Assembly: GCA_963701965.1 (NCBI GenBank)
Contig: OY969695.1
Location: 4,192,001 to 4,256,000 of the forward strand
Length of the DNA: 64,000 nucleotides
DNA from: an uncultured Gemmatimonadales bacterium
Lineage (GTDB): Bacteria > Gemmatimonadota > Gemmatimonadetes > Gemmatimonadales > Gemmatimonadaceae
Reading direction: 5' to 3'
The translations under genes and the position numbers were made by a program. Below the pieces are notes generated by a model. That model saw only the letters and a list, made by a program, of their open reading frames with translations, was not told the origin of the DNA and ran no database searches. Shown piece after piece: positions 34,038 to 50,978 of this stretch (position 1 is its first letter; every line of letters starts with the position of its first letter).

Positions 34038-34616
34038 ATGGACTCCGAGTTCGAGTCACTTTTGCGGTGCGTCGATGGCGCGCAACCAGGTGCGGCGGAC
34101 AGGTTGTTCGCCATCTGCTACGCCGAGCTACACCGCCTCGCCGAGCACAATCTGTGGCGCTCCGGATCGACGGTCACCCTGGGGCCGACCACGCTGCTCC
34201 ACGAGGCGTACCTCAACATCGTCGGCCGCGCCGATGTCGCCTTTGCGGACCGACCCCGTTTTCTCAACTACGCCTCCCGGGCGATGCGTGGCCTGATCAT
34301 CGACTACGCCCGCCGCCGGCGCACGAGGAAGTGCGGACGGCAGTTCGAGATCACGCTGGCGACCGACGAGGAGCTCCCCGCTCATCCCGACCACGGCGCG
34401 GAGGATTTGGTCCGCCTCGGAGAAGCGCTCGACGAGTTGTCCACATTGGAGCCGGCGCTGGCGCAACTCGTCGACCTCCACTTCTTCTGTGGTTTCTCGT
34501 TCACCGAAATCGCCACCATGCGGCACGTCTCGGATCGCACCGTCCAGCGGGATTGGCGGAAGGCGCGACTACTGTTGCACCAGGCCTTGCTCGATGAGGA
34601 AAGCCCCGGGGGCTAG
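34038..34616 (+). CDS. ECF sigma factor of the kinase-associated TIGR02999 (ECF43-like) type
   Basis: YAELHRLA, TLGPTTLLHEAYL, RAMRGLIIDYAR, VDLHFF.G and RTVQRDWRKAR motifs. Confidence 0.92.
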   Translation: MDSEFESLLRCVDGAQPGAADRLFAICYAELHRLAEHNLWRSGSTVTLGPTTLLHEAYLNIVGRADVAFADRPRFLNYASRAMRGLIIDYARRRRTRKCGRQFEITLATDEELPAHPDHGAEDLVRLGEALDELSTLEPALAQLVDLHFFCGFSFTEIATMRHVSDRTVQRDWRKARLLLHQALLDEESPGG

Positions 34617-37216
34617 CGTGCCGTCGCGCCGAGGCGCGCCAGCCGCTCCTCGGCTTGCCGCAGGCGAGGGTGCGCCGCGCCGGCGCCAAACCGGAGCGCC
34701 GCGACGGCATGGGTCAGCGCGGCGCGCGCCGCGAGCGTGTCGCCGACGGCCAGTCGGGTGCGCGCCTCGAGCAGGTCGGCTTCGCCCGCGTATGCGCTGC
34801 GCGAGTCGGTCAGCGAATCCACGGACGCCACGGCTCGCGCGGCGCGTATGAAGCCGAGCGCGTCGGCCGTGTCCGACGGCGGCGTAGTTTCCGCGGCCAG
34901 GATGAGGGCCGAGCGAAAGACGCGCCGTTTCTTGCCATCGAAGTAGCCGTGCGATCTCAGCACGTCGACCACCCGCTCGTGTGCGGTGGCGCTGTCGCCG
35001 GACGCCAAAGCCATCCACGCGTCGAGAAAGCGATCGTCGACCACCTGATCGTCCGTGCTCCTGAGCGCGGGATTGCTGACCAACGGACGGAACCGGGTCA
35101 TCGTCCCGCGCGCCAGATCCCTGGCGCCACCACGGATCTGCGCCTGGGCGAGGCCGAACAGGGCCCGTCCTTGCCAGTATGCGTTGTGGGTCTGAGCCGC
35201 CTGACCCGCCAGGACCGCGAAGTACTTCGCCGCGGAATCGAAGTGCGCATTGAACAAAGCCGTGTGCGCATAATGAATGAGTGCCTGCTCCGGCAGGTGG
35301 CCGGCTGGATCGCTCCGTGTCGTCCGTTCGATCACGTCGTGCAAGAGGCGCTCGGCTTCCGCGGTCTCGCCCAGGCGAACGTACGTGACCGCCATGTCGT
35401 GCTCGATGATGCCGCGCGTCAGCGTTTCGCCACGGCCCGTCGAGTCCATCAGCGCGCCCGCCCGTCGATACAACGCGATCGCGTCGCGCGGGTGCCCATC
35501 GAGATCGAGTGACGTGGCCAAGGTCGACAGAAGCCCCACGAACGTCAGGTCCGTCGTGTCCGCCGACATCTGACGTATCGCGACCGCTCGCCGGGCGGCG
35601 TCGACGGCGCGGTGGGGATCGCCGGCCTCGGCTTCCAGGTCGGAGAGCGACTGCAGGCAGGTTGCTTCAACCGGCGCATCCGGCGCCGCGTGAAGGATCG
35701 CATCGGCCGCGCGCAGCGTCCGCCGCGCCTCGTCGTACCGCCCCACGCCCCGGAGGGCGGACGCCTGATGGCAACGGATCTCGGCCAGATCCGGATAGCC
35801 GCCGGCGACCGCGATCGACTCGGCGCGCGCGAGGAGCGTGTGTTGCGTCGTGTTGTCGCCCAGATCGCCGTACTGCGCGGACAGCTGGACGAGCAGGGCC
35901 GCGACCAGGCGCGAGTCGCCGACGTATTGACCTTCGAGCGCGACGCGGCTCCGATCGAGGATTTCGCGCATCGTGAGCGGCCGGTCGCCCAGCTCGGACA
36001 TGAGGAGCGACTGAAATTCGATGAGCGCGTTGGCGCGCCGGGTCGCGAATATCGCCGCATCGCGCTCGCGCTGTGCGGTATGCATCTGCGCCACCGAAAA
36101 CACCGTCGCCGCCAGGAGCGCGGCGCCGATGCCAGTCGCCAAGGCGACACCGGCGCGGTGGCGGCGAACAAACTTGCCCATCCGGTACGCGATCGAGTCG
36201 GGACGTGCGCCGACCGGTTCGTGGGCCAGATACCGGCGCAGGTCGTCGGCGAAAGCCTCCACCGTCTGATACCGTTCGCTCGGGTCCTGTCGCAGAGCCT
36301 TGAGGAGCACCGTGTCGAGATCGCCAAGGTCGAGCGATGGCGGTGCGGTGTCGCGTGGGGGAAGTCGGCCGGCGAGCAGCGCATGCAGCAGCAGGCCGAG
36401 CGCGTAGACATCCGTTGCCGTGGTAATGGCGTCGCCGTGCAGCTGCTCGGGCGCCGCGAATTGCGGCGTCAAGGGGCCGGATCCCTCGCGCGTGAGGGCC
36501 CCCATATCGCTCGCCGGGTCGGCGTCGATCAGCTTGGCGATGCCGAAGTCCAGCAGTTTCACGACGCCGTCAGGCGTGACCAGGATGTTCGACGGCTTGA
36601 GGTCGCGGTGGACGATGAGGTGCGCGTGCGCGTGTCCGACCGCGTCGAGGACCTGGAGCAGGAGGCCAATGCGGCCGTCCGACGACACCGCGTGAGTCGT
36701 GGCGAACGTGTCGATGCGTTCGCCGTCAATGTGCTCCAGGACGAGATACGGCTGCCCGCTCGGACTGACGCCGGCATCGAGGAGCCGCGCGATACCCGGG
36801 TGCGCCAGGCGGGCGAGCAGTGAGCCTTCGCGCCGGAACCGCGCTTGCCCGGCGGCACTGGACAGGGCCACGTTCAGGAGCTTGACGGCCGCGAATCCCT
36901 CGAATTGGCCGTCGGTGCGCCGCGCGAGCCAGACGGACCCCATCCCGCCTTGGCCGAGGAGTCGTTCGAGGGTGTAGGGTCCGAGTTGGACGCCGGCGAA
37001 TGATCCGTCCAGCGTCGGTGTGAACGGCTCGGCCAGAAACCCGCGTCGGTCGGCCGCCTCCTCACCGGACAGGAGCGACGTCAGCTCCTCCGCGACGGCC
37101 GGGGTGCGCTGGCGCAGGTCAGCGAGCCATGAGGCGCGCTCGTCGGGTGTCAGCTCCAGCGCGCGGTCCAGCAGCGGTTCGAGTACGCGCCACCGGTCGC
37201 GATCCATGATGGCCAT
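34613..37216 (-). CDS. Membrane Ser/Thr protein kinase with TPR-like C-terminus
   Basis: GQGGMGSV, AAVK, HRDLKPSN, DFG, FAAPEQ and DVYALG motifs; a TM helix then helical repeats; GGAG RBS before ATG 37216. Confidence 0.95.
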   Translation of the reverse strand: MAIMDRDRWRVLEPLLDRALELTPDERASWLADLRQRTPAVAEELTSLLSGEEAADRRGFLAEPFTPTLDGSFAGVQLGPYTLERLLGQGGMGSVWLARRTDGQFEGFAAVKLLNVALSSAAGQARFRREGSLLARLAHPGIARLLDAGVSPSGQPYLVLEHIDGERIDTFATTHAVSSDGRIGLLLQVLDAVGHAHAHLIVHRDLKPSNILVTPDGVVKLLDFGIAKLIDADPASDMGALTREGSGPLTPQFAAPEQLHGDAITTATDVYALGLLLHALLAGRLPPRDTAPPSLDLGDLDTVLLKALRQDPSERYQTVEAFADDLRRYLAHEPVGARPDSIAYRMGKFVRRHRAGVALATGIGAALLAATVFSVAQMHTAQRERDAAIFATRRANALIEFQSLLMSELGDRPLTMREILDRSRVALEGQYVGDSRLVAALLVQLSAQYGDLGDNTTQHTLLARAESIAVAGGYPDLAEIRCHQASALRGVGRYDEARRTLRAADAILHAAPDAPVEATCLQSLSDLEAEAGDPHRAVDAARRAVAIRQMSADTTDLTFVGLLSTLATSLDLDGHPRDAIALYRRAGALMDSTGRGETLTRGIIEHDMAVTYVRLGETAEAERLLHDVIERTTRSDPAGHLPEQALIHYAHTALFNAHFDSAAKYFAVLAGQAAQTHNAYWQGRALFGLAQAQIRGGARDLARGTMTRFRPLVSNPALRSTDDQVVDDRFLDAWMALASGDSATAHERVVDVLRSHGYFDGKKRRVFRSALILAAETTPPSDTADALGFIRAARAVASVDSLTDSRSAYAGEADLLEARTRLAVGDTLAARAALTHAVAALRFGAGAAHPRLRQAEERLARLGATAR

Positions 37217-43443: not shown

Positions 43444-43857
43444 TCATTCGACGAACCGACGGACCTCGACATGCCCTCCGTACTTCCAATGCGGACACGT
43501 CGCCGCCACTCGATCGGCATCGGCGTCGCTCGGGGCCCGAACGATGAACATGCCCGTGATCTCGCCGGGCCCGATCAATCGTCCCCCCCGATCGACTCCC
43601 ACGCTATCGGCCCACCGTGCATACTCGTGGATCCGCTCCTCCATATGGCCCGGCGGTGGCAGGCGATACGTGGAGTCCTGGTGCAGGAGGAAGACGTAGG
43701 GACTGCCTTTCTGCGCCGACCAGTTGTGGACGAAGAGCAGCACGAGCGCGGCGGCGAGGGGGGCCAACAGCCACATCGCCGATCGTCGCCGAGGCCGGAT
43801 TTCGCCAGCTTGGATCAAGGCCCGCACCACGCGGTCCTCGAGAGGGACGTGTGTCAT
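43444..43857 (-). CDS. Putative anti-sigma factor: short N-terminus, TM helix, YCII-like C-terminal domain
   Basis: ATGA-coupled to the ECF sigma. TM helix WLLAPLAAALVLLFV; C-terminus GMFIVRA...A...A..CPH...GG.VEVR. Confidence 0.7.
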   Translation of the reverse strand: MTHVPLEDRVVRALIQAGEIRPRRRSAMWLLAPLAAALVLLFVHNWSAQKGSPYVFLLHQDSTYRLPPPGHMEERIHEYARWADSVGVDRGGRLIGPGEITGMFIVRAPSDADADRVAATCPHWKYGGHVEVRRFVE

Positions 43858-44363
43858 GGTAGCAATCCCCGGAGCAGGCTCCGAGCGCGGTTGAGTTGGC
43901 TTTTTGATGTCCCGACGACAATGCCCAGCATGCCGGCGATCTCTTCGTGAGTGTAACCGTGGACGTCGTGCAGGACGAAGATGTCGCGCGCACCCTCCGG
44001 TAATCCGGCGATGGCGCGTTCGAGATCCAACGCGTCATCGGTGACGACGCCGTTGGGCGCGATCGCGTCGTCTACGGGTGCTTCCACGATGCGCCACGCC
44101 GTGCGAATACGTTCGCGCCGCACGTTGACCAGAAAGCCGCAGAGCCACGAGCGCAGCGTCGATTCGGCGCGGAACGTGGAGAGCGCCCGAACCGCCCGCA
44201 GCCAACTCTCCTGAACCAGATCCTCGGCTTCGCCGGCGTCGCCACCCGCGAGGCGAAGCGCCAGCGCATACAGCGCTGGCGTATGGATGCGATACAGCGA
44301 TCGAAACGCGTCCTCGCCGCGCGACCGTAAGAACTGCCGGACGAGCGCGAGGTCGTCGTTCAC
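43854..44363 (-). CDS. ECF sigma-70 factor (copy A)
   Basis: AEDLVQESW, FRAESTLRSWL and LHDVHGYTHEEIAGMLGIVVGTSKSQLNRAR motifs; GTGA overlap with the upstream gene. Confidence 0.93.
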   Translation of the reverse strand: MNDDLALVRQFLRSRGEDAFRSLYRIHTPALYALALRLAGGDAGEAEDLVQESWLRAVRALSTFRAESTLRSWLCGFLVNVRRERIRTAWRIVEAPVDDAIAPNGVVTDDALDLERAIAGLPEGARDIFVLHDVHGYTHEEIAGMLGIVVGTSKSQLNRARSLLRGLLP

Positions 44364-44959
44364 CGGGCGGGCGTGGGGTCGATCCAATCGCGAGCGACAA
44401 TGACGAGCGCCGAGCTCGGCGTCGCTGGATCGAGCACCATGGGGATGCTACCGTCGGACGATGGCACCAGTCCCATGTCCGCGGTGCGCATGCCCGGGTA
44501 GAAGACCATGACGTGCGGCAGCCACTTGCCGATCACGGTCCCATCGGGATTGGGCAACCGCTGGGCGGACGACAACATGAACACGAGCGCCGGGCGCGAA
44601 GGCGTCCGGAAGCGACCGGCGGCCCTCCCGTCCGCTATGGCGCGGGCGATGTCGGCATTCGAGCGGCCCGCCAGACGCTGCTCGACCCGAAAGCGCTCCA
44701 CGGCCAGGATGGTGGTATCGGCCTCGGCGTCACCGCACTCCGGTTCCAGTGACGTCTCCACGCTCCGAATGACCATGCACGCCTCGCCGGAATGACCGGG
44801 CTCGGCGACGACATAGTGGTTGTCGGCGAGCACATAGATCCGGGCGTCCTTCGCAACCGCCGGCGGCGCCGCGCTTCGGGCGAGCCGGATTTCGTCATTG
44901 CGCGACTGGGCCGCGGCGATGACGGGAACCAATAGGGCTACTGATAGAAGTATACGCAT
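44360..44959 (-). CDS. Secreted protein of unknown function (paralog of 45733-46444)
   Basis: Signal peptide; EIRLARSAAP, G.ACMV.RS, PEC, FMLSS and PHVMVF motifs. Confidence 0.8.
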   Translation of the reverse strand: MRILLSVALLVPVIAAAQSRNDEIRLARSAAPPAVAKDARIYVLADNHYVVAEPGHSGEACMVIRSVETSLEPECGDAEADTTILAVERFRVEQRLAGRSNADIARAIADGRAAGRFRTPSRPALVFMLSSAQRLPNPDGTVIGKWLPHVMVFYPGMRTADMGLVPSSDGSIPMVLDPATPSSALVIVARDWIDPTPAR

Positions 44960-44965
44960 ATCCAT

Positions 44966-44992
44966 GAGTGAAGGAAGCGGCACTTAAGGTTG
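44966..44992 (-). promoter_or_regulatory. ECF-type promoter CAACCTT-N14-TCACTC
   Basis: One of three identically spaced copies; ATG 44959 follows after 6 nt with no RBS. Confidence 0.75.
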
Positions 44993-45010
44993 TAGGGCCT
45001 ACGAGTCGTG

Positions 45011-45553
45011 TCACGGCAGCGATTCCCGAAGTAGGCGCCGGGCGCGGTTGAGTTGGCTTTTGGATGTCCCGACGACGATGCCGAGCATTTCGGCGATCTC
45101 CTCATGGGTGTATCCCTCGACGTCATGCAGGACGAAGACGTCGCGCGTTCCCTCGGGTAACCCGGCGATAGCGCGCTCGAGATCCGGCGCGTCGCCGGTG
45201 ACCCCGTGGAGCACGATCGGTTCGTCCGCGGGCCTCTCCACGGTCCGCCACGCCGTCCTCAGTCGCTCGCGCCGCACGCTGACCACAAAACGGGTGAGCC
45301 ACGAGTGCAGAGTCGATTCGGCGTGGAACGTGGAGAGCACGCGAACGGCGCTCAGCCAACTCTCCTGGACCAAGACCTCCGCCTCGCCCGCGTCGCCATC
45401 GGCCAGACGAAGCGCCAGCGCGTAGAGCGCTGGCGTGTGGATGCGATAGAGCGACCGAAAGGCGTCCTCTCCGCGGGAGCGTAAGAAGTGCTGGACGAGC
45501 GCGAGATCGTCGCTCCCACTGACGCGGGCCGGGTGCGGTTGTGGTGTAGGCAC
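45011..45553 (-). CDS. ECF sigma-70 factor (copy B, close paralog of copy A)
   Basis: Shares DDLALV.xFLRSRGEDAFRSLYRIHTPALYALALRLA and GYTHEEIA.MLGIVVGTSKSQLNRAR with copy A; likely GTG start at 45553. Confidence 0.92.
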   Translation of the reverse strand: MPTPQPHPARVSGSDDLALVQHFLRSRGEDAFRSLYRIHTPALYALALRLADGDAGEAEVLVQESWLSAVRVLSTFHAESTLHSWLTRFVVSVRRERLRTAWRTVERPADEPIVLHGVTGDAPDLERAIAGLPEGTRDVFVLHDVEGYTHEEIAEMLGIVVGTSKSQLNRARRLLRESLP

Positions 45554-45559
45554 ATACGT

Positions 45560-45586
45560 TAGTGAAGGAACCGGCCCAAAAGGTTG
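45560..45586 (-). promoter_or_regulatory. ECF-type promoter CAACCTT-N14-TCACTA
   Basis: Second copy; in-frame GTG 45553 follows after 6 nt. Confidence 0.75.
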
Positions 45587-45647
45587 GAAGGCCCGCCGGC
45601 GGAGGCGGTGCATGGCGGGGGACCGCCCCTGACGTCAACGACTCCTC

Positions 45648-45674
45648 CAACCTTTTGTCGGTCGCGCGTCACTC
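45648..45674 (+). promoter_or_regulatory. ECF-type promoter CAACCTT-N14-TCACTC
   Basis: Third copy, divergent, upstream of the secreted protein-SusC-SusD unit. Confidence 0.75.
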
Positions 45675-45732
45675 AGTGTGATAGACCCAGCACCAGAATG
45701 CTATCACGGATACTTCTCTGAGGAGACGGGTG

Positions 45733-46444
45733 ATGCCACGAAGGATCACAGGGTCGATCGTGTGGACACGCGTCGCCACGGTCGCGGCCCTGGGACTCGC
45801 GCAATCATCGCACGCCCAAAGCGCCGCGACCCCGTATCCCCGCATGGCGCCTATTGGGCAATACCTGATGGATCGCACGGCGGAGATTGCCCTGGCCAAG
45901 AGCGCCGCCCCCGCGTCGGTATCGGATAAAGCCCAAATCCTGGTGCTCGGACCGAAGGGCTACGAGACCGCGATCGAAGGGACCAACGGCTTCGTCTGCC
46001 TCGTCGAGCGATCGTGGCAGGCCGATTTCGACGACCCGGAGTTCTGGAATCCCAAGATTCGAGGCGCCGGGTGCTTCAACCCTGCCGCCGCACGCTCCGT
46101 CGTACCGGCGAAGGTGAAACGGCAGCAGATGATCCTGGCGGGACTGTCCAAGGCGCAGGTGATGGACAGTATCAAGGCCGCATTGGATCGGGGAACCCTG
46201 GTGGCACCCGCACCCGGCGCGATGTGCTACATGATGTCCAAAGTCGCGTACCTGAACGATCACGGCGACATGGCCCATTCTGATGTTCTTCCTCCCGCTC
46301 ACCGACGACAAAGTCTGGCCCGCGAGCGGGCCGACGCCGCCGTTCTTTGTCGATCAAAATCCGGTGGACCGCGTCACCACCCTCATCATCCCGACCGGCC
46401 ATTGGTCGGACGGCGCCCCGGCGTCGACTGGCGCGAAGGGATAA
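45733..46444 (+). CDS. Secreted protein of unknown function; apparent frameshift at ~46278
   Basis: GAGGAG RBS and signal peptide; EIALAKSAAP, GTNGFVCLVERSW and AMCYMMSK. Removing one T gives HLMFFLP...IPTGHWSDG...TAA 46444. Confidence 0.82.
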
Positions 46445-46488
46445 CCGGGATCCGCAGGACAGGCACCTTCAACCTTTCGGAGGCACAC

Positions 46489-49488
46489 GTGACGACAGTA
46501 TTTGTGCGAAGAGTGTGGCGAACGGCACTCACCATCGGTCTAGTAGCGCTGGGGAGCGCCGCGTCGACGGCAGCCCAGGCCCAGGGTACGCCGCGTCGTC
46601 TCACAGGGCATGTCATCGAGGCCGACGGGAAATCCCCCGTCCCGGCGGCGAGTGTCCGGGTCGGCAACAGTACCATCGGAAGTTTGACGACGGACAGTGG
46701 CACGTTCTCGCTCCGCGTGCCGGACGGCGCGCTGACGTTGACGGTCCGACGGATCGGCTATACGAGCAATACCGTGTCGGTCGCCGCCGATCAGAATGAT
46801 GTGACCATCTCGCTTACGCGCGACATCCTCAAGCTCGATGCCGAAGTGATCACCGGAGTGGCCACGACGATCTCGTCGAAGAACTCGGCGAATGACGTCG
46901 CGGTACTCAACGCGGATCAGATCAACCAGGTCCCCTCACCGACGATCGAGAACGCCCTGCAGGGCAAGATCGCGGGCGCCGTGATTCAGCAGAACAACGG
47001 TGGCGCCCCCGGTGGCGGCATGCAAGTCCAGATCCGCGGCGTCACGTCGATCAACTCCGATGCCTCGCCGCTGTACGTGGTCGACGGCGTGATCCTGAAC
47101 AACCAGACGATGAATAGTGGCGCGAACGCTGTGACCCAGTCAGCGAGCGTCATGCCCAAACAGTCGAGCCAGGACAACAGCGCGAACCGCATCGCCGATC
47201 TGAACCCGGACGACATCGAGACGATCGAGGTGTTGAAGGGGGCGTCGGCGGCCGCGATCTACGGGTCGAAGGCCGCATCGGGTGTCATCGTGATCACGAC
47301 GAAGAAGGGCCTCCCCGGCGCGCCGCAGTGGGATCTGTCGGGACAGGCCGGCACATACACGCCGTCGAACACGCTCCAGATGCGTACGTTCCCCACCTAT
47401 CAGAGCGCGAACGCGTGGTATATGAAGGACTTTCGCAGTCCGACGCCCTTGCCCTTGAGCATGTACGCCGGCAATCAAGACTATCAGAACCAGCTCTTCG
47501 GCGGCGGCCAGCTCTCGGGTCAGGGCGATCTGAGCGTCCGCGGCGCGAACAACAACACGAACTACTATGCGTCATTGCACGATCAGTACGACAATGGGAT
47601 CATGCTCGGTACTAGCTACAACAAGCAAGCGGCCCGGACGAACCTGACCGAGACGTTCTCTCCCGCGCTCACCGTCTCGACGAACCTGTACGTTCAGCAC
47701 TCGGTCACCACCCGCGGCATCACCGGCAATGACAACGTCGGGGTCAGCCCGTACAACATCTTTTCGGTGACGCCGCAATTCGTCAAACTGAATTCGTTCT
47801 CGCAGAATACGTGGGCTAATAATCCGTTCGGATTCGGCAATCCGTTTGCCGACGCCGCAGAGATTCAGACGCCGTCGGACGTCAATCGCTTCATTGGCGG
47901 CGGCACCGCGAACTTGCAGCTGTTCCACAGCGACCGGCAGGACCTGCGCCTGTCGCTGATCGCGGGGGTCGACCTGACCGGCGAGCACGACATCAACTAT
48001 GCGCCGCCCGATCTCGAGCTCGAGCAGCACCAGTCGCTGCCGGGCACGTCGAACCTGAGCAATGTGAATACCACGTACTACAACTACTCGATCAGCCTGA
48101 TCCATCACTTCACGGGGCTCTCGTTCCTCGACGCCACGACGTCGATCGGCGAATCGCAGGATCGGCGTACGGTCGACAACCCGAACCTCGTTGGACAAAG
48201 CCTTCCGCCCGGGATTGTCAGTCCGACCGCCGGACAGGTACAGACGACGTTCGAGAACAGAACCGATACGAAGACAATGACACTCTACGCGCAGGAACAG
48301 CTGCTCACGCTATCCCAGCGGCTATCCCTCACGGCCGGCGTGACGGCGGATCGCAACTCGAACAACGGCAACTTCTCGGCCTACTATCTGTATCCGAAGT
48401 TCGCCGCATCGTTCCGGATCCCGCAGTTCGTGGGCTTCATCAATGACGTCAAGCTCCGCTCGGCATACGGTCAGTCGGGCACGGCGCCGACATACGGATT
48501 CAACTACGCCAGCAACTCGAGTTGCGCGCCCGCCCTGAACACATCCCAGGCGCTGCTCTGCGGCTATACGGCGCCCAACGTCAATCTGAACGACCCGCAC
48601 ATCACGCCCGAAAAGAGCACCGAGACCGAGGCGGGAATCGACATCACCGCGTTCAAGTCGCGGGCGCAGTTCTCCGGTACGGTCTACAACAAGCAAATCT
48701 CTAACCTCGTGCTGTTCACGGCACCGGCGCAGGCGACCGGCTTGAGCCAGATCATCCTGAACGGTGGGCAATTCACCAATCAGGGCATCGAGCTCTCGCT
48801 CCAGATGTCCCCGATCGCCAACCCGCGAGGGCTCACCTGGATCTCGAACGCGACGTTCTACCGCAACTACAGCCGCGTGGACGCGCTCCCGTTTGGACCG
48901 TTCGTCGCGGGGTCCGGGTTCGGTGGGGGGTTTGGGGAGAACGAAGTTCGGGTCGGGCGTTCCGTAACGCAGATCGTCGATCCGGGTATCAAGAACGCGG
49001 ATAGCAGCGTGAAGCAGATCGGCGATGCGCAACCGTCCAATGTGATGAGCTTTTCGCAGCAGCTCTCGTTTGGTCGTCTGCATCTCTCCGGCGTGCTGGA
49101 TTGGTATGTCGGTGGGAGCGTCGCCAATTTGACCAACGCCTACTTCGATACGCGGCTCCTTCTGCTGGCCGATACGGCCGCGTCTCTGGCGCGCGCGAAT
49201 GCGCCGCCGACTCAGCACCCGTACATCGAATCCGCGCGGTTCGTCAAGCTCCGCGAGGTTCGGCTGAGCTATGATGTGCCCGATCGGTGGGTGCGTACGA
49301 TCGGAGCGGGACGGCTCCGCACCATGCGCATCGACCTGTCGGGTCGCAACCTCATATCCAGCTTCCCCTATTCCGGACTTGATCCGGAAGTGTCGAACTT
49401 CGGCAATAGCCAGATCTCACGCGGGCAAGACGTCACGCCGTATCCGCCTGCCAGAAGCTTCTTCTTCGGCGTCGACCTAGGGCTCTGA
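46489..49488 (+). CDS. SusC/RagA-family TonB-dependent outer membrane transporter
   Basis: GGAGG then GTG 46489; CarboxypepD-like N-domain; ALQGKIAG, PLYVVDGV and DLNPDDIETIEVLKGASAAAIYGSKAASGVIVITTKKG; C-terminus YPPARSFFFGVDLGL. Confidence 0.95.
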   Translation: MTTVFVRRVWRTALTIGLVALGSAASTAAQAQGTPRRLTGHVIEADGKSPVPAASVRVGNSTIGSLTTDSGTFSLRVPDGALTLTVRRIGYTSNTVSVAADQNDVTISLTRDILKLDAEVITGVATTISSKNSANDVAVLNADQINQVPSPTIENALQGKIAGAVIQQNNGGAPGGGMQVQIRGVTSINSDASPLYVVDGVILNNQTMNSGANAVTQSASVMPKQSSQDNSANRIADLNPDDIETIEVLKGASAAAIYGSKAASGVIVITTKKGLPGAPQWDLSGQAGTYTPSNTLQMRTFPTYQSANAWYMKDFRSPTPLPLSMYAGNQDYQNQLFGGGQLSGQGDLSVRGANNNTNYYASLHDQYDNGIMLGTSYNKQAARTNLTETFSPALTVSTNLYVQHSVTTRGITGNDNVGVSPYNIFSVTPQFVKLNSFSQNTWANNPFGFGNPFADAAEIQTPSDVNRFIGGGTANLQLFHSDRQDLRLSLIAGVDLTGEHDINYAPPDLELEQHQSLPGTSNLSNVNTTYYNYSISLIHHFTGLSFLDATTSIGESQDRRTVDNPNLVGQSLPPGIVSPTAGQVQTTFENRTDTKTMTLYAQEQLLTLSQRLSLTAGVTADRNSNNGNFSAYYLYPKFAASFRIPQFVGFINDVKLRSAYGQSGTAPTYGFNYASNSSCAPALNTSQALLCGYTAPNVNLNDPHITPEKSTETEAGIDITAFKSRAQFSGTVYNKQISNLVLFTAPAQATGLSQIILNGGQFTNQGIELSLQMSPIANPRGLTWISNATFYRNYSRVDALPFGPFVAGSGFGGGFGENEVRVGRSVTQIVDPGIKNADSSVKQIGDAQPSNVMSFSQQLSFGRLHLSGVLDWYVGGSVANLTNAYFDTRLLLLADTAASLARANAPPTQHPYIESARFVKLREVRLSYDVPDRWVRTIGAGRLRTMRIDLSGRNLISSFPYSGLDPEVSNFGNSQISRGQDVTPYPPARSFFFGVDLGL

Positions 49489-49490
49489 CC

Positions 49491-50978
49491 ATGACACTCT
49501 CTTCACACGCTCATCGCATCGCCACGCTCGGCATCATCGCGAGCCTGGCCGGTTTCGCCGGTGCGTGCAACACGAACCCGGTGGCGAATCTCAATCAGGT
49601 CGAGGCGGGCACATCGCCCTCCGGGTATCAAGCGCGCTTCCTCGGCATGCTGTACTTCCAGCGGCAAGACTTCGGGGATCGCGTCATCATGTTTAGCGCG
49701 TTCTCTCGGGACGGCGGTAATTTCACGACGACGGAAAAACGGTTCATCACCGAATGGCTCGGCGACGGAGCGGGCATCGAGGACGGCACGTTCTTCGGGG
49801 GCTCCAGCGAGGAATCCCAGCTGTCGTCGATCCGCCAGTCGGAGCAAATCCTTGCCGATCTGCCGAAAGCCGTGCCGGCGTATTCGGCAAGCGACATCGC
49901 CAAGTGGAAAGGGCTGATCTACACGATCGATGCCCTCGGGTATATGAACGTCGCGGTGCCCCACGACACGGTCGGATTCCCTATGGCGTCGGCAACAACG
50001 ACGACGCCGTCGATTCAGACGCCGATCCTGTGCACAAAGAACGTCTGGCAGCAGATCGTCGCGCTACTGGACTCGGGGTTCACGCAACTCAACGCCGATC
50101 AGAGTCCGGGACTACCGATCACGCTGCCGCCGGGATTCTCACTGGTCAGTGCCCAGGCGAGCCCGAGCACGAAGATCGGTTCGTTCGCGGCGCTCAATCG
50201 CGCCCTGGCCGCGCGCGCCAACCTCGAGCTGGCCTACGCGATCGCGCGGTCGCCAGGTGGAACGCCGCCGACCCCGACATCGCCCGGGGCTCCGGATCAT
50301 GCGGCACTGATCCGCGCCGACAGCGCGCTGCACGCGTCGGCGCTGTACTCGGCAACGAATCTGGCGCCGCCTGCCGCCGGTGCATTCAACAATGCGCTCG
50401 CGGTCTACCAGGATTTCTCGGGCCAGTCCGGCGATCTCCCGAATTTGTTCCTGCAACAATACCAAACGACGTTCTACATCCTCAACGAGGCGATGGCCGA
50501 CATCGATCCGGCCGATAAACGGTTAGTGAAAATCATACCCGCCGCCGGGCCGGCTGGTACCCCGTTCTCCTCGGTGGCCTCGGCGAACACGATTGGGATG
50601 TATCCCTCGGCGGACAGTCATATGCCGATCATCCGTAACGAGGAGCTCAACCTCTTCGAGGCGCAGATTCGACTCGGACTGGGTGATATCCCCGGTGCGA
50701 TCAATGCGATCAATGCGGTGCGGGTGCAGGTCGGCGGATTGCCGGCCCTGTCGGCGGCCGGACAGACCTACGTGTCCGTGCGCAATCAGATTCTCAAAGA
50801 GCTCCGGGCGTCGACGATCGGCGAGACGAATGGCGATCGGGTCGCCGCCATCCGGGACTACGGCTTGCCCGCCCTCGCGGACACGACGTGGGGCAAGGTC
50901 GACACCCACGCCACGGTCATGACGCTCGCTGCCAATGATGTGGAGGGGCGCGCGAGTTCGAATTACACCTGTCACTAA
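49491..50978 (+). CDS. SusD/RagB-family nutrient-binding lipoprotein
   Basis: FAGAC lipobox; PIIRNEELNLFEAQ, AINAINAVR and ILKELR...GDR motifs; directly follows SusC. Confidence 0.88.
   Translation: MTLSSHAHRIATLGIIASLAGFAGACNTNPVANLNQVEAGTSPSGYQARFLGMLYFQRQDFGDRVIMFSAFSRDGGNFTTTEKRFITEWLGDGAGIEDGTFFGGSSEESQLSSIRQSEQILADLPKAVPAYSASDIAKWKGLIYTIDALGYMNVAVPHDTVGFPMASATTTTPSIQTPILCTKNVWQQIVALLDSGFTQLNADQSPGLPITLPPGFSLVSAQASPSTKIGSFAALNRALAARANLELAYAIARSPGGTPPTPTSPGAPDHAALIRADSALHASALYSATNLAPPAAGAFNNALAVYQDFSGQSGDLPNLFLQQYQTTFYILNEAMADIDPADKRLVKIIPAAGPAGTPFSSVASANTIGMYPSADSHMPIIRNEELNLFEAQIRLGLGDIPGAINAINAVRVQVGGLPALSAAGQTYVSVRNQILKELRASTIGETNGDRVAAIRDYGLPALADTTWGKVDTHATVMTLAANDVEGRASSNYTCH

Follow-up and report, generated by a model that had tools for sequence, protein, structure and literature searches.

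A recurrent module of a predicted secreted protein, an extracytoplasmic function sigma factor and a predicted membrane-anchored YCII anti-sigma factor in Gemmatimonadota

A 64,000-nucleotide stretch of the genome of an uncultured Gemmatimonadales bacterium (GenBank assembly GCA_963701965.1, contig OY969695.1, positions 4,192,001 to 4,256,000; here, the window) carries a cluster of genes around two extracytoplasmic function (ECF) sigma factors, A and B, and the conserved core of this cluster consists of three genes, encoding a predicted secreted protein, X, an ECF sigma factor and a small protein in which a transmembrane helix is joined to a YCII domain (TM-YCII). A profile of the TM-YCII protein found matches in 100 of 401 genomes of the phylum at E ≤ 1e-5, many of the weak rows being partial YCII domains, and the neighborhoods of the best and mostly full-length rows were sampled at 40 loci, all in other genomes of this phylum. 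The TM-YCII match was recovered in 39 of these loci, with an ECF sigma gene directly ahead of it in all 39, and X was found in 35, two of the five misses lying at contig ends. In a subset of 80 TM-YCII and 113 X rows, X lay within 2.5 kb of 33 of the 40 full-length TM-YCII rows and of 11 of the 40 partial ones. A sequence-only reading of the window had proposed a linkage of X, sigma factor and a SusC/SusD transporter pair; the link among X, sigma and TM-YCII recurs across the phylum, but SusC was found in only 1 of the 40 loci. Gene clustering of the phylum loci gave no further module-specific neighbor. The recurrent flanking genes, for Ser/Thr kinases (16 loci) and ABC permeases (14 loci), are taken as common genomic background, and Pfam searches revealed no theme in 124 genes that flank the loci or follow the motif (115 out of 226 called neighbors and nine others). 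Among representatives at 50% identity, the TM-YCII profile matched 1,433 proteins at E ≤ 1e-10, part of them plain YCII proteins. The named homologues belong to Gemmatimonadaceae and Gemmatimonadales, and one Atlas cluster is mostly Acidobacteriota (seven members with known phylum); a single-protein genome scan returned partial YCII matches only, and a metagenome scan seven short contigs.

The 137-residue TM-YCII protein is likely a single-pass, class I-like anti-sigma factor, which would act by binding the sigma factor. Its gene occupies the +1 position behind the ECF gene and overlaps it by ATGA, and X1 and sigma A overlap in the same way by GTGA; all four minus-strand reading frames translate as first proposed. 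In the predicted structure (pLDDT 86.5), a helix at residues 6-16 comes first, then a long one spanning 31-50 and, from 52 to 137, a compact domain. The transmembrane helix spans about residues 26-45, leaving a cytoplasmic part of fewer than 30 residues. Hydropathy and charge by themselves give the single transmembrane helix and inside N-terminus typical of class I anti-sigma (ASDI) proteins: hydropathy is 2.0 in the window protein and exceeds 1.6 in 30 of 38 homologues, and net positive charge is greater before the transmembrane helix than after it in 37 of 38, a topology that would place the YCII domain outside the cytoplasm. The cytoplasmic helix holds the motif LEDRV and resembles helix 4 of class I anti-sigma factors, which PMC7406223 describes as the main contact to sigma-2. 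Three of its residues, L6, R9 and L14, are kept in 61, 58 and 58 of 64 rows, and the conserved LExRV helix aligns with the corresponding helix of a zinc-finger-type relative, P0409. In longer relatives a zf-HC2 domain (27.9 bits against a cut-off of 22.2) precedes TM-YCII, here too downstream of an ECF gene, and in an Atlas cluster zf-HC2 is present at 69% and YCII at 73%; the combination of zf-HC2 with TM-YCII in these proteins supports the anti-sigma reading. The earlier proposal of an autoregulated ECF sigma with a co-transcribed membrane anti-sigma candidate, an extracytoplasmic YCII domain and X genes among its targets is supported.

The YCII label itself holds by fold and profile, but the window protein scores below the Pfam cut-off (15.3 versus 24), so the assignment rests on a paralogue that passes it (28.2), on the profile search and on the fold. 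The profile search matched PA1349 (1s7i) at E 2.3e-9, and PA1349 was also the best structural match (Z 10.4, rmsd 2.7, 85 residues aligned), followed by HI0828 and ClcF, the second Z being 8.6; the top Foldseek rows were TftG and ClcF. We therefore place the domain with the ferredoxin-like YCII domains (PF03795) homologous to PA1349 and HI0828. Close homologues have a deletion of the hairpin bearing the DGPF motif, which is degenerate in more distant homologues, and the domain is fused to a transmembrane helix rather than being soluble and free-standing.

The genes of the module share a bipartite promoter motif, CAACC-N16-CACTCA, and its placement makes autoregulation likely. The sequence CAACC-N16-TCACT upstream of sigma B, X1 and X2 accounts for three of the four exact matches in the 5.1-Mb genome. 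Scored with a matrix built from 34 sites at foreign loci, picked by a pattern seeded from the window, the sites of sigma B and X2 are strong but that of X1 is degenerate (Table 1). SusC lacks a site of its own (best score -9.5 bits) and would share the motif only if read through from X2. Of the 40 sites in the genome scoring above 11 bits, five exceed 18 bits, where ten matrices with shuffled columns give 1.3 on average, and all five lie at the two module loci: they precede sigma B, X2, a second sigma gene, the X gene of the second copy and an operon of DGPF and ECF42 genes. This second complete copy (C1:720-729 kb), with three more strong sites, one of them ahead of the DGPF-ECF42 operon, means that the regulon of the window is not self-contained, contrary to what had been suggested. 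In the second copy (C1:720294-728579), SusD and a frameshifted SusC diverge from an arm that holds a DGPF gene, truncated, as well as ECF42, sigma C, TM-YCII and X3. Of 38 genomes with TM-YCII, 22 contain the exact pattern, as do 2 of 20 without it, with 31 matches versus 5 for a reversed control. In ten same-genus regions outside the training set, 13 of 14 sites above 15 bits precede X, sigma or DGPF/ECF42 genes, one being intragenic. Eight distal matches of the exact pattern were also inspected: X genes follow two of them, part of a TM-YCII gene follows one, and the remaining five stand before other genes or nothing distinct. From this placement the regulon looks small, comprising the operon, extra X genes and, in the genus, DGPF-ECF42; the motif ahead of DGPF-ECF42 in the genus islands suggests a sigma cascade. 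Within the window, the site of sigma B may read through the whole minus-strand cluster. The ATG of X1 lies 5 nt behind the -10 element (44959-44965), an arrangement shared by sigma B and a close orthologue (L151:6604-6640), and all three look leaderless, whereas leaders of some 25-50 nt are usual among the homologues.

X is a predicted secreted protein without a known family or fold match, although these misses are not proof of a new fold. Its model is confident (pLDDT 91.7), yet Foldseek gave no match at E ≤ 0.001 and the best structural Z was 3.6. A sequence search of the PDB reached E 0.3 at best, matches in the Atlas fell into unnamed clusters only, and a Pfam search found no family common to more than one of 102 members. 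In the numbering of P0110, which starts two residues earlier than X1, the signal peptide is likely cut at Q20, preceded by Ala, and nine residues (E25, C63, R67, P75, C77, M130, S132, H151 and M153) are at least 97% conserved in 87 sequences. The strand order by itself indicates that C63 and C77 could form a cross-strand disulfide and that M130, H151 and M153 could share a site. A role in copper handling, considered in view of the Met and His residues, found no support: copper genes occurred at 4 of 57 loci against a background of 3.3%, with queries drawn from the same loci. X1 and X2, described at first as clear paralogues, are homologous (E 8e-12) but only 29% identical over 137 residues, and X2 is closer to three other paralogues of its own genome (50-58%) than to X1. 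Two X genes of this genome stand alone (C1:2194929-2195603 and C1:4472958-4473641), and an X fragment lies directly behind a DGPF-ECF42 pair (C1:1658457-1658774). Two islands from same-genus genomes (L147 and L148; G437:C15 and G524:C18) carry, besides the module and an X-SusC-SusD array, several X genes together with DGPF genes and two or three genes for ECF42. At L147:16878-17957 and L148:1-885, a degenerate DGPF gene is in frame with X, which keeps its Met and signal peptide; we read these two reading frames as a lost stop ahead of an X gene with its own start rather than as evidence of a DGPF-X fusion, a true fusion being the less likely alternative. A distant homologue of X with the Cys, Met and His motifs lies on a Rhizobium megaplasmid (L092:2923-4648), with no ECF gene among the reading frames listed there and, ahead of it, a pair of genes that we take to be ArsR-like and SRPBCC-like.

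X and YCII stay together even where the sigma factor changes. The sigma A clade (29 rows, support 100/98) forms a separate branch, and YCII anti-sigma factors with X accompany three well-supported sigma clades for which a single origin is rejected (p-AU 0.0004). X also adjoins soluble DGPF/ECF42 genes, and together these associations make the pairing of X with YCII more constant than that of either with a particular sigma. The two further ECF clades (L082, L097-L099 and L104; L081 and L100-L102) have a TM-YCII anti-sigma factor and X adjacent, the head of the anti-sigma factor being zf-HC2 in one and non-zinc in the other. The module promoter motif was not found in the seven loci scanned from these two clades.

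Gene order, coupling, fold and motif placement are what we observe, and from them we infer a switch that we hold to be somewhat on the probable side: the helix holds the sigma factor, a periplasmic small molecule binds YCII and frees it, and the sigma then induces X, which removes the inducer. At rest, the short cytoplasmic helix would cover sigma region 2, by analogy with helix 4 in anti-sigma factors of class I. The signal would be a small molecule in the periplasm, most likely a reactive or toxic organic compound, bound by YCII, which is the weakest step of the scheme. Release of the sigma could proceed through regulated proteolysis or a change of shape, and the freed sigma would then transcribe its own operon, the extra X genes and, in the genus, DGPF-ECF42, as the positions of the motif suggest. 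X would act as the effector, binding or converting the inducer through a site of Cys, His, Met, Glu and Arg residues and so ending the response. A bolder generalization, which we regard as less likely than not, is that YCII/DGPF and X form a portable periplasmic pair for sensing and detoxifying, found in three unrelated ECF lineages with different anti-sigma heads and, in soluble form, with ECF42.

X might instead work alongside the sensor in the periplasm, as a co-receptor or an RseB-like protector; it would then bind YCII, itself sense the signal, for example a metal or a redox change at the Met/His/Cys site, and control release of the sigma. Its constancy beside YCII anti-sigma factors in the three sigma clades and beside soluble DGPF/ECF42 genes would fit such a partnership, as would its translational coupling to the sigma gene and the possible proximity of M130, H151 and M153, as read from strand order. 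Same-genus genomes, however, carry up to nine X genes per two to three modules, many of them alone under the motif, as expected of an effector. Distance from any TM-YCII gene is common among X genes, and copper genes are not enriched around the family. We consider a sensory role for X unlikely.

Several further observations weigh against the switch with X as effector. The window protein has a single helix before the membrane and lacks helices 1-3 of the class I domain, an N-terminal bundle that is seen only in the zf-HC2 relatives; the NCBIfam anti-sigma match of the window protein is marginal (E 0.097), and it is shorter than its close homologues at the N-terminus and by five residues within YCII. 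X is widespread without the module, only 45 of the 113 tabulated X rows lying near a TM-YCII-like match, and two intact X paralogues of the same genome have no strong motif site. The promoter matrix and the exact-pattern counts are partly circular and the genomes related, and the flanking genes examined give no hint of the signal. A small cytoplasmic part of one helix would also suit a YCII enzyme or binding protein that is anchored in the membrane and simply transcribed together with the sigma gene, the sigma being controlled in some other way. Such a reading gains from the enzymes TftG and ClcF among the closest folds and from ECF42, in which, according to PMC7826278, YCII genes are targets of the sigma. 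Against it stand the conservation of L6, R9 and L14 in the cytoplasmic helix, the relatives bearing zf-HC2 and the fixed +1 position, and we judge it improbable.

The two sigma factors of the window hold sigma-2 and sigma-4 only, as is characteristic of ECF (group 4) factors; both score above the cut-offs of PF04542 and PF08281 and reach 74 and 67 bits against TIGR02937 (cut-off 42.9). The view of them as a duplicated pair is upheld by their 81% identity, but the duplication is not part of the core: a near-identical tandem sigma occurs in none of the 40 phylum loci. Three of four same-genus genomes hold two to three copies of the module, and in these three every close copy of the sigma is accompanied by its own TM-YCII gene. 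Comparison of the promoter regions of sigma B and X1 shows 24 of 35 non-motif positions matching; 31 foreign sites average 12.6 such matches and reach 18 at most. Sigma B opens with a sequence resembling X1's start fused to the X1/sigma junction and closes with a copy of the bases that begin the TM-YCII gene. These likenesses of promoter, start and end indicate that sigma B is likely a recent local duplicate of the promoter-X-sigma unit from which X and the anti-sigma gene were lost. Measured against nine close homologues at the positions where the two differ, sigma A agrees better 21 times and sigma B 5 times. The branch of sigma B is fourfold longer (0.21 versus 0.054), and it is changed at D48, R56, G76 and N80 in sigma-2, where 22-27 of 27 homologues side with sigma A. 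Sigma B is thus likely decaying, although the pairwise dN/dS is still 0.19; it may alternatively have an altered specificity or a decoy role. The boldest reading of the locus is that sigma B, with a damaged sigma-2 and an intact sigma-4, is a decoy that titrates the anti-sigma factor.

The low dN/dS would also suit two working sigma factors, and with them SusC and SusD could be an integral part of the system, with TonB-dependent uptake as its main output. In keeping with this scheme, a SusCD pair flanks both module copies of the genome, whose 5.1 Mb hold 16 SusC-like places, and two same-genus genomes have an X-SusC-SusD array next to the module. At one locus from another family, SusCD closes an operon led by the motif, and there is no terminator-like site between X2 and SusC on that strand. 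We think the scheme has little chance. Sigma B has altered sigma-2 residues; in the 40 phylum loci SusC occurs once and tandem sigma genes are lacking; the SusC proteins at the two copies are only 38-44% identical; and in two genus islands the nearby site points away from X-SusCD, toward ECF42. Around 29 other SusC loci, over about 1.5 kb, neither X nor a site above 13 bits turned up. We therefore treat SusCD as a genus-level passenger, possibly captured here under the X2 promoter, and not as the integral component it was first taken for. The SusC protein passes TIGR04056 (428 bits, cut-off 368). Without a Pfam or NCBIfam match, SusD takes its name from where it lies, from a lipoprotein-like N-terminus and from its paralogues behind other SusC genes. 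A further candidate promoter just before SusC, CAACCTTT, was discarded for want of a -10 partner. At L069:748-8848, genes for a LytTR-like regulator, a secreted protein, a carbonic anhydrase, a small secreted protein and SusCD lie under the motif and converge with the module.

The remaining features of the cluster are collected in Table 1. X2 belongs to the X family as proposed, but its reading frame is not intact, the unshifted frame continuing into SusC. Since 6 of 67 genes of the assembly tested against foreign homologues show apparent frameshifts, the break in X2 is plausibly an assembly error, as other broken reading frames may likewise be; a pseudogene is the alternative. Reads in two public runs left the position of the frameshift uncovered (shares 0.07 and 0.05). 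Elsewhere in the window, at 34104-37216, a different ECF-like gene is followed by what appears by eye to be a Ser/Thr kinase gene, and a similar pair diverges from the X operon at loci L150 and L154.

Table 1. Genes and promoter sites of the cluster, in window coordinates
Feature	Position	Strand	Remarks
TM-YCII anti-sigma candidate	43444..43857	minus	137 aa
ECF sigma A	43854..44363	minus	169 aa; conserved copy, coupled to the anti-sigma candidate
X1, predicted secreted protein	44360..44959	minus	199 aa; no Pfam or fold match
Promoter site of X1-sigma A-TM-YCII, degenerate	44965..44995	minus	CAACC-N16-TCACTCA, 10.4 bits
ECF sigma B	45011..45553	minus	180 aa; local tandem duplicate
Promoter site of sigma B, strong	45559..45589	minus	32.0 bits
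Promoter site of X2, strong	45645..45675	plus	28.3 bits
X2, second X subfamily	45733..46444	plus	frameshift near 46278-46280
SusC/RagA TonB-dependent transporter	46489..49488	plus	starts 44 nt past X2; accessory
SusD-like lipoprotein	49491..50978	plus	accessory

The module works like a switch of an ECF sigma and a class I anti-sigma factor, yet it falls outside the full definitions of the ASDI domain, ECF42, ECF272 and ECF266. As in SigK-RskA, RpoE-RseA and SigW-RsiW, a sigma gene is followed by that of a single-pass membrane protein with a cytoplasmic helix resembling helix 4, zf-HC2 is present in relatives and a bipartite motif is conserved upstream; here, in contrast, the extracytoplasmic part is a YCII domain of the DGPF type, the window clade keeps only the helix-4-like segment and X is a fixed operon partner. 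In the ASDI table of PMC7406223 no YCII label appears, nor does a YCII-like row among its 11 Gemmatimonadetes rows or the short-motif matches. ECF42 likewise links an ECF sigma to a DGPF-type YCII protein, the best homologue of the module's YCII domain being PA1349, and ECF42-DGPF operons of the genus sit under the module's motif with X genes beside them. As described in PMC7826278, ECF42 has a TPR extension of about 200 residues, a soluble YCII protein at -1, no anti-sigma factor and the promoter TGTCGAT/CGTC, whereas the sigma factors of the window, at 169 and 180 residues, end after sigma-4, and the module has a membrane-tethered YCII protein without the DGPF motif at +1 and the promoter CAACC-N16-CACTCA. 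The nearest classified neighbors of the window clade are probably ECF272 and the ungrouped subgroup ECFs7 (Gemmatimonas members); sigma factors of the same genome with partners like those of ECF272s9 and ECFs7, their anti-sigma factors matched by eye, branch close to the clade. ECF272 is described with an RskA-like anti-sigma factor, with DUF4097 in the +2 position and with TTTAAACCTTT / CG(A|T)CTAA as its promoter, and the module differs in its anti-sigma factor, +2 neighbor and promoter. ECF266 resembles it in a TGCAACA + ACTCT promoter and in having at +1 a single-pass protein that has been put forward as a new type of anti-sigma factor; the sensor of this clostridial group, however, is a beta-propeller, unlike the YCII fold of the module's +1 protein. 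ECF21 shares GCAACC at -35 but has CGTCT at -10. FecI-like or ECF10-derived signaling with SusCD also places an ECF gene beside TonB-dependent SusC and SusD; here Pfam shows neither a FecR or STN match nor a signaling extension on SusC, and the link is not conserved.

In the searched part of the supplement of PMC7826278, without Tables S1 and S4, YCII is given only for ECF42 and ECF38s4, at -1, and the string CACT is absent. The full-text literature searched, which includes PMC8999054, PMC6180224, PMC12924614 and PMC7826278 and leaves most subscription papers outside, showed no description of a YCII anti-sigma factor, in line with the impression of the sequence-only reading that the architecture is uncharacterized. 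None of the ECF group descriptions consulted has this anti-sigma factor or this promoter, and the module probably represents an unclassified ECF group.

It is not a new kind of regulation, since new sensor domains on ECF anti-sigma factors are common. Its interest lies rather in the domain that it carries. YCII/DGPF proteins accompany ECF42, among the largest ECF groups, and their role there has only been proposed, according to PMC8999054. A YCII domain fused to an anti-sigma factor would be a sensor with a reporter readout, through which the sensing of ligands becomes testable, and the three genes and the 31-bp promoter could be moved into a laboratory host to screen for inducers. With its unusual -10 element (CACTCA), the module is also a candidate for a new ECF group within a phylum that is abundant and largely uncultured, and it draws attention to a large family of predicted secreted proteins without a structural match. 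If YCII/DGPF and X do form a portable pair, X would be an enzyme or a metal-binding protein of new fold, and the membrane-bound version would give a direct handle on the ligands of DGPF proteins.

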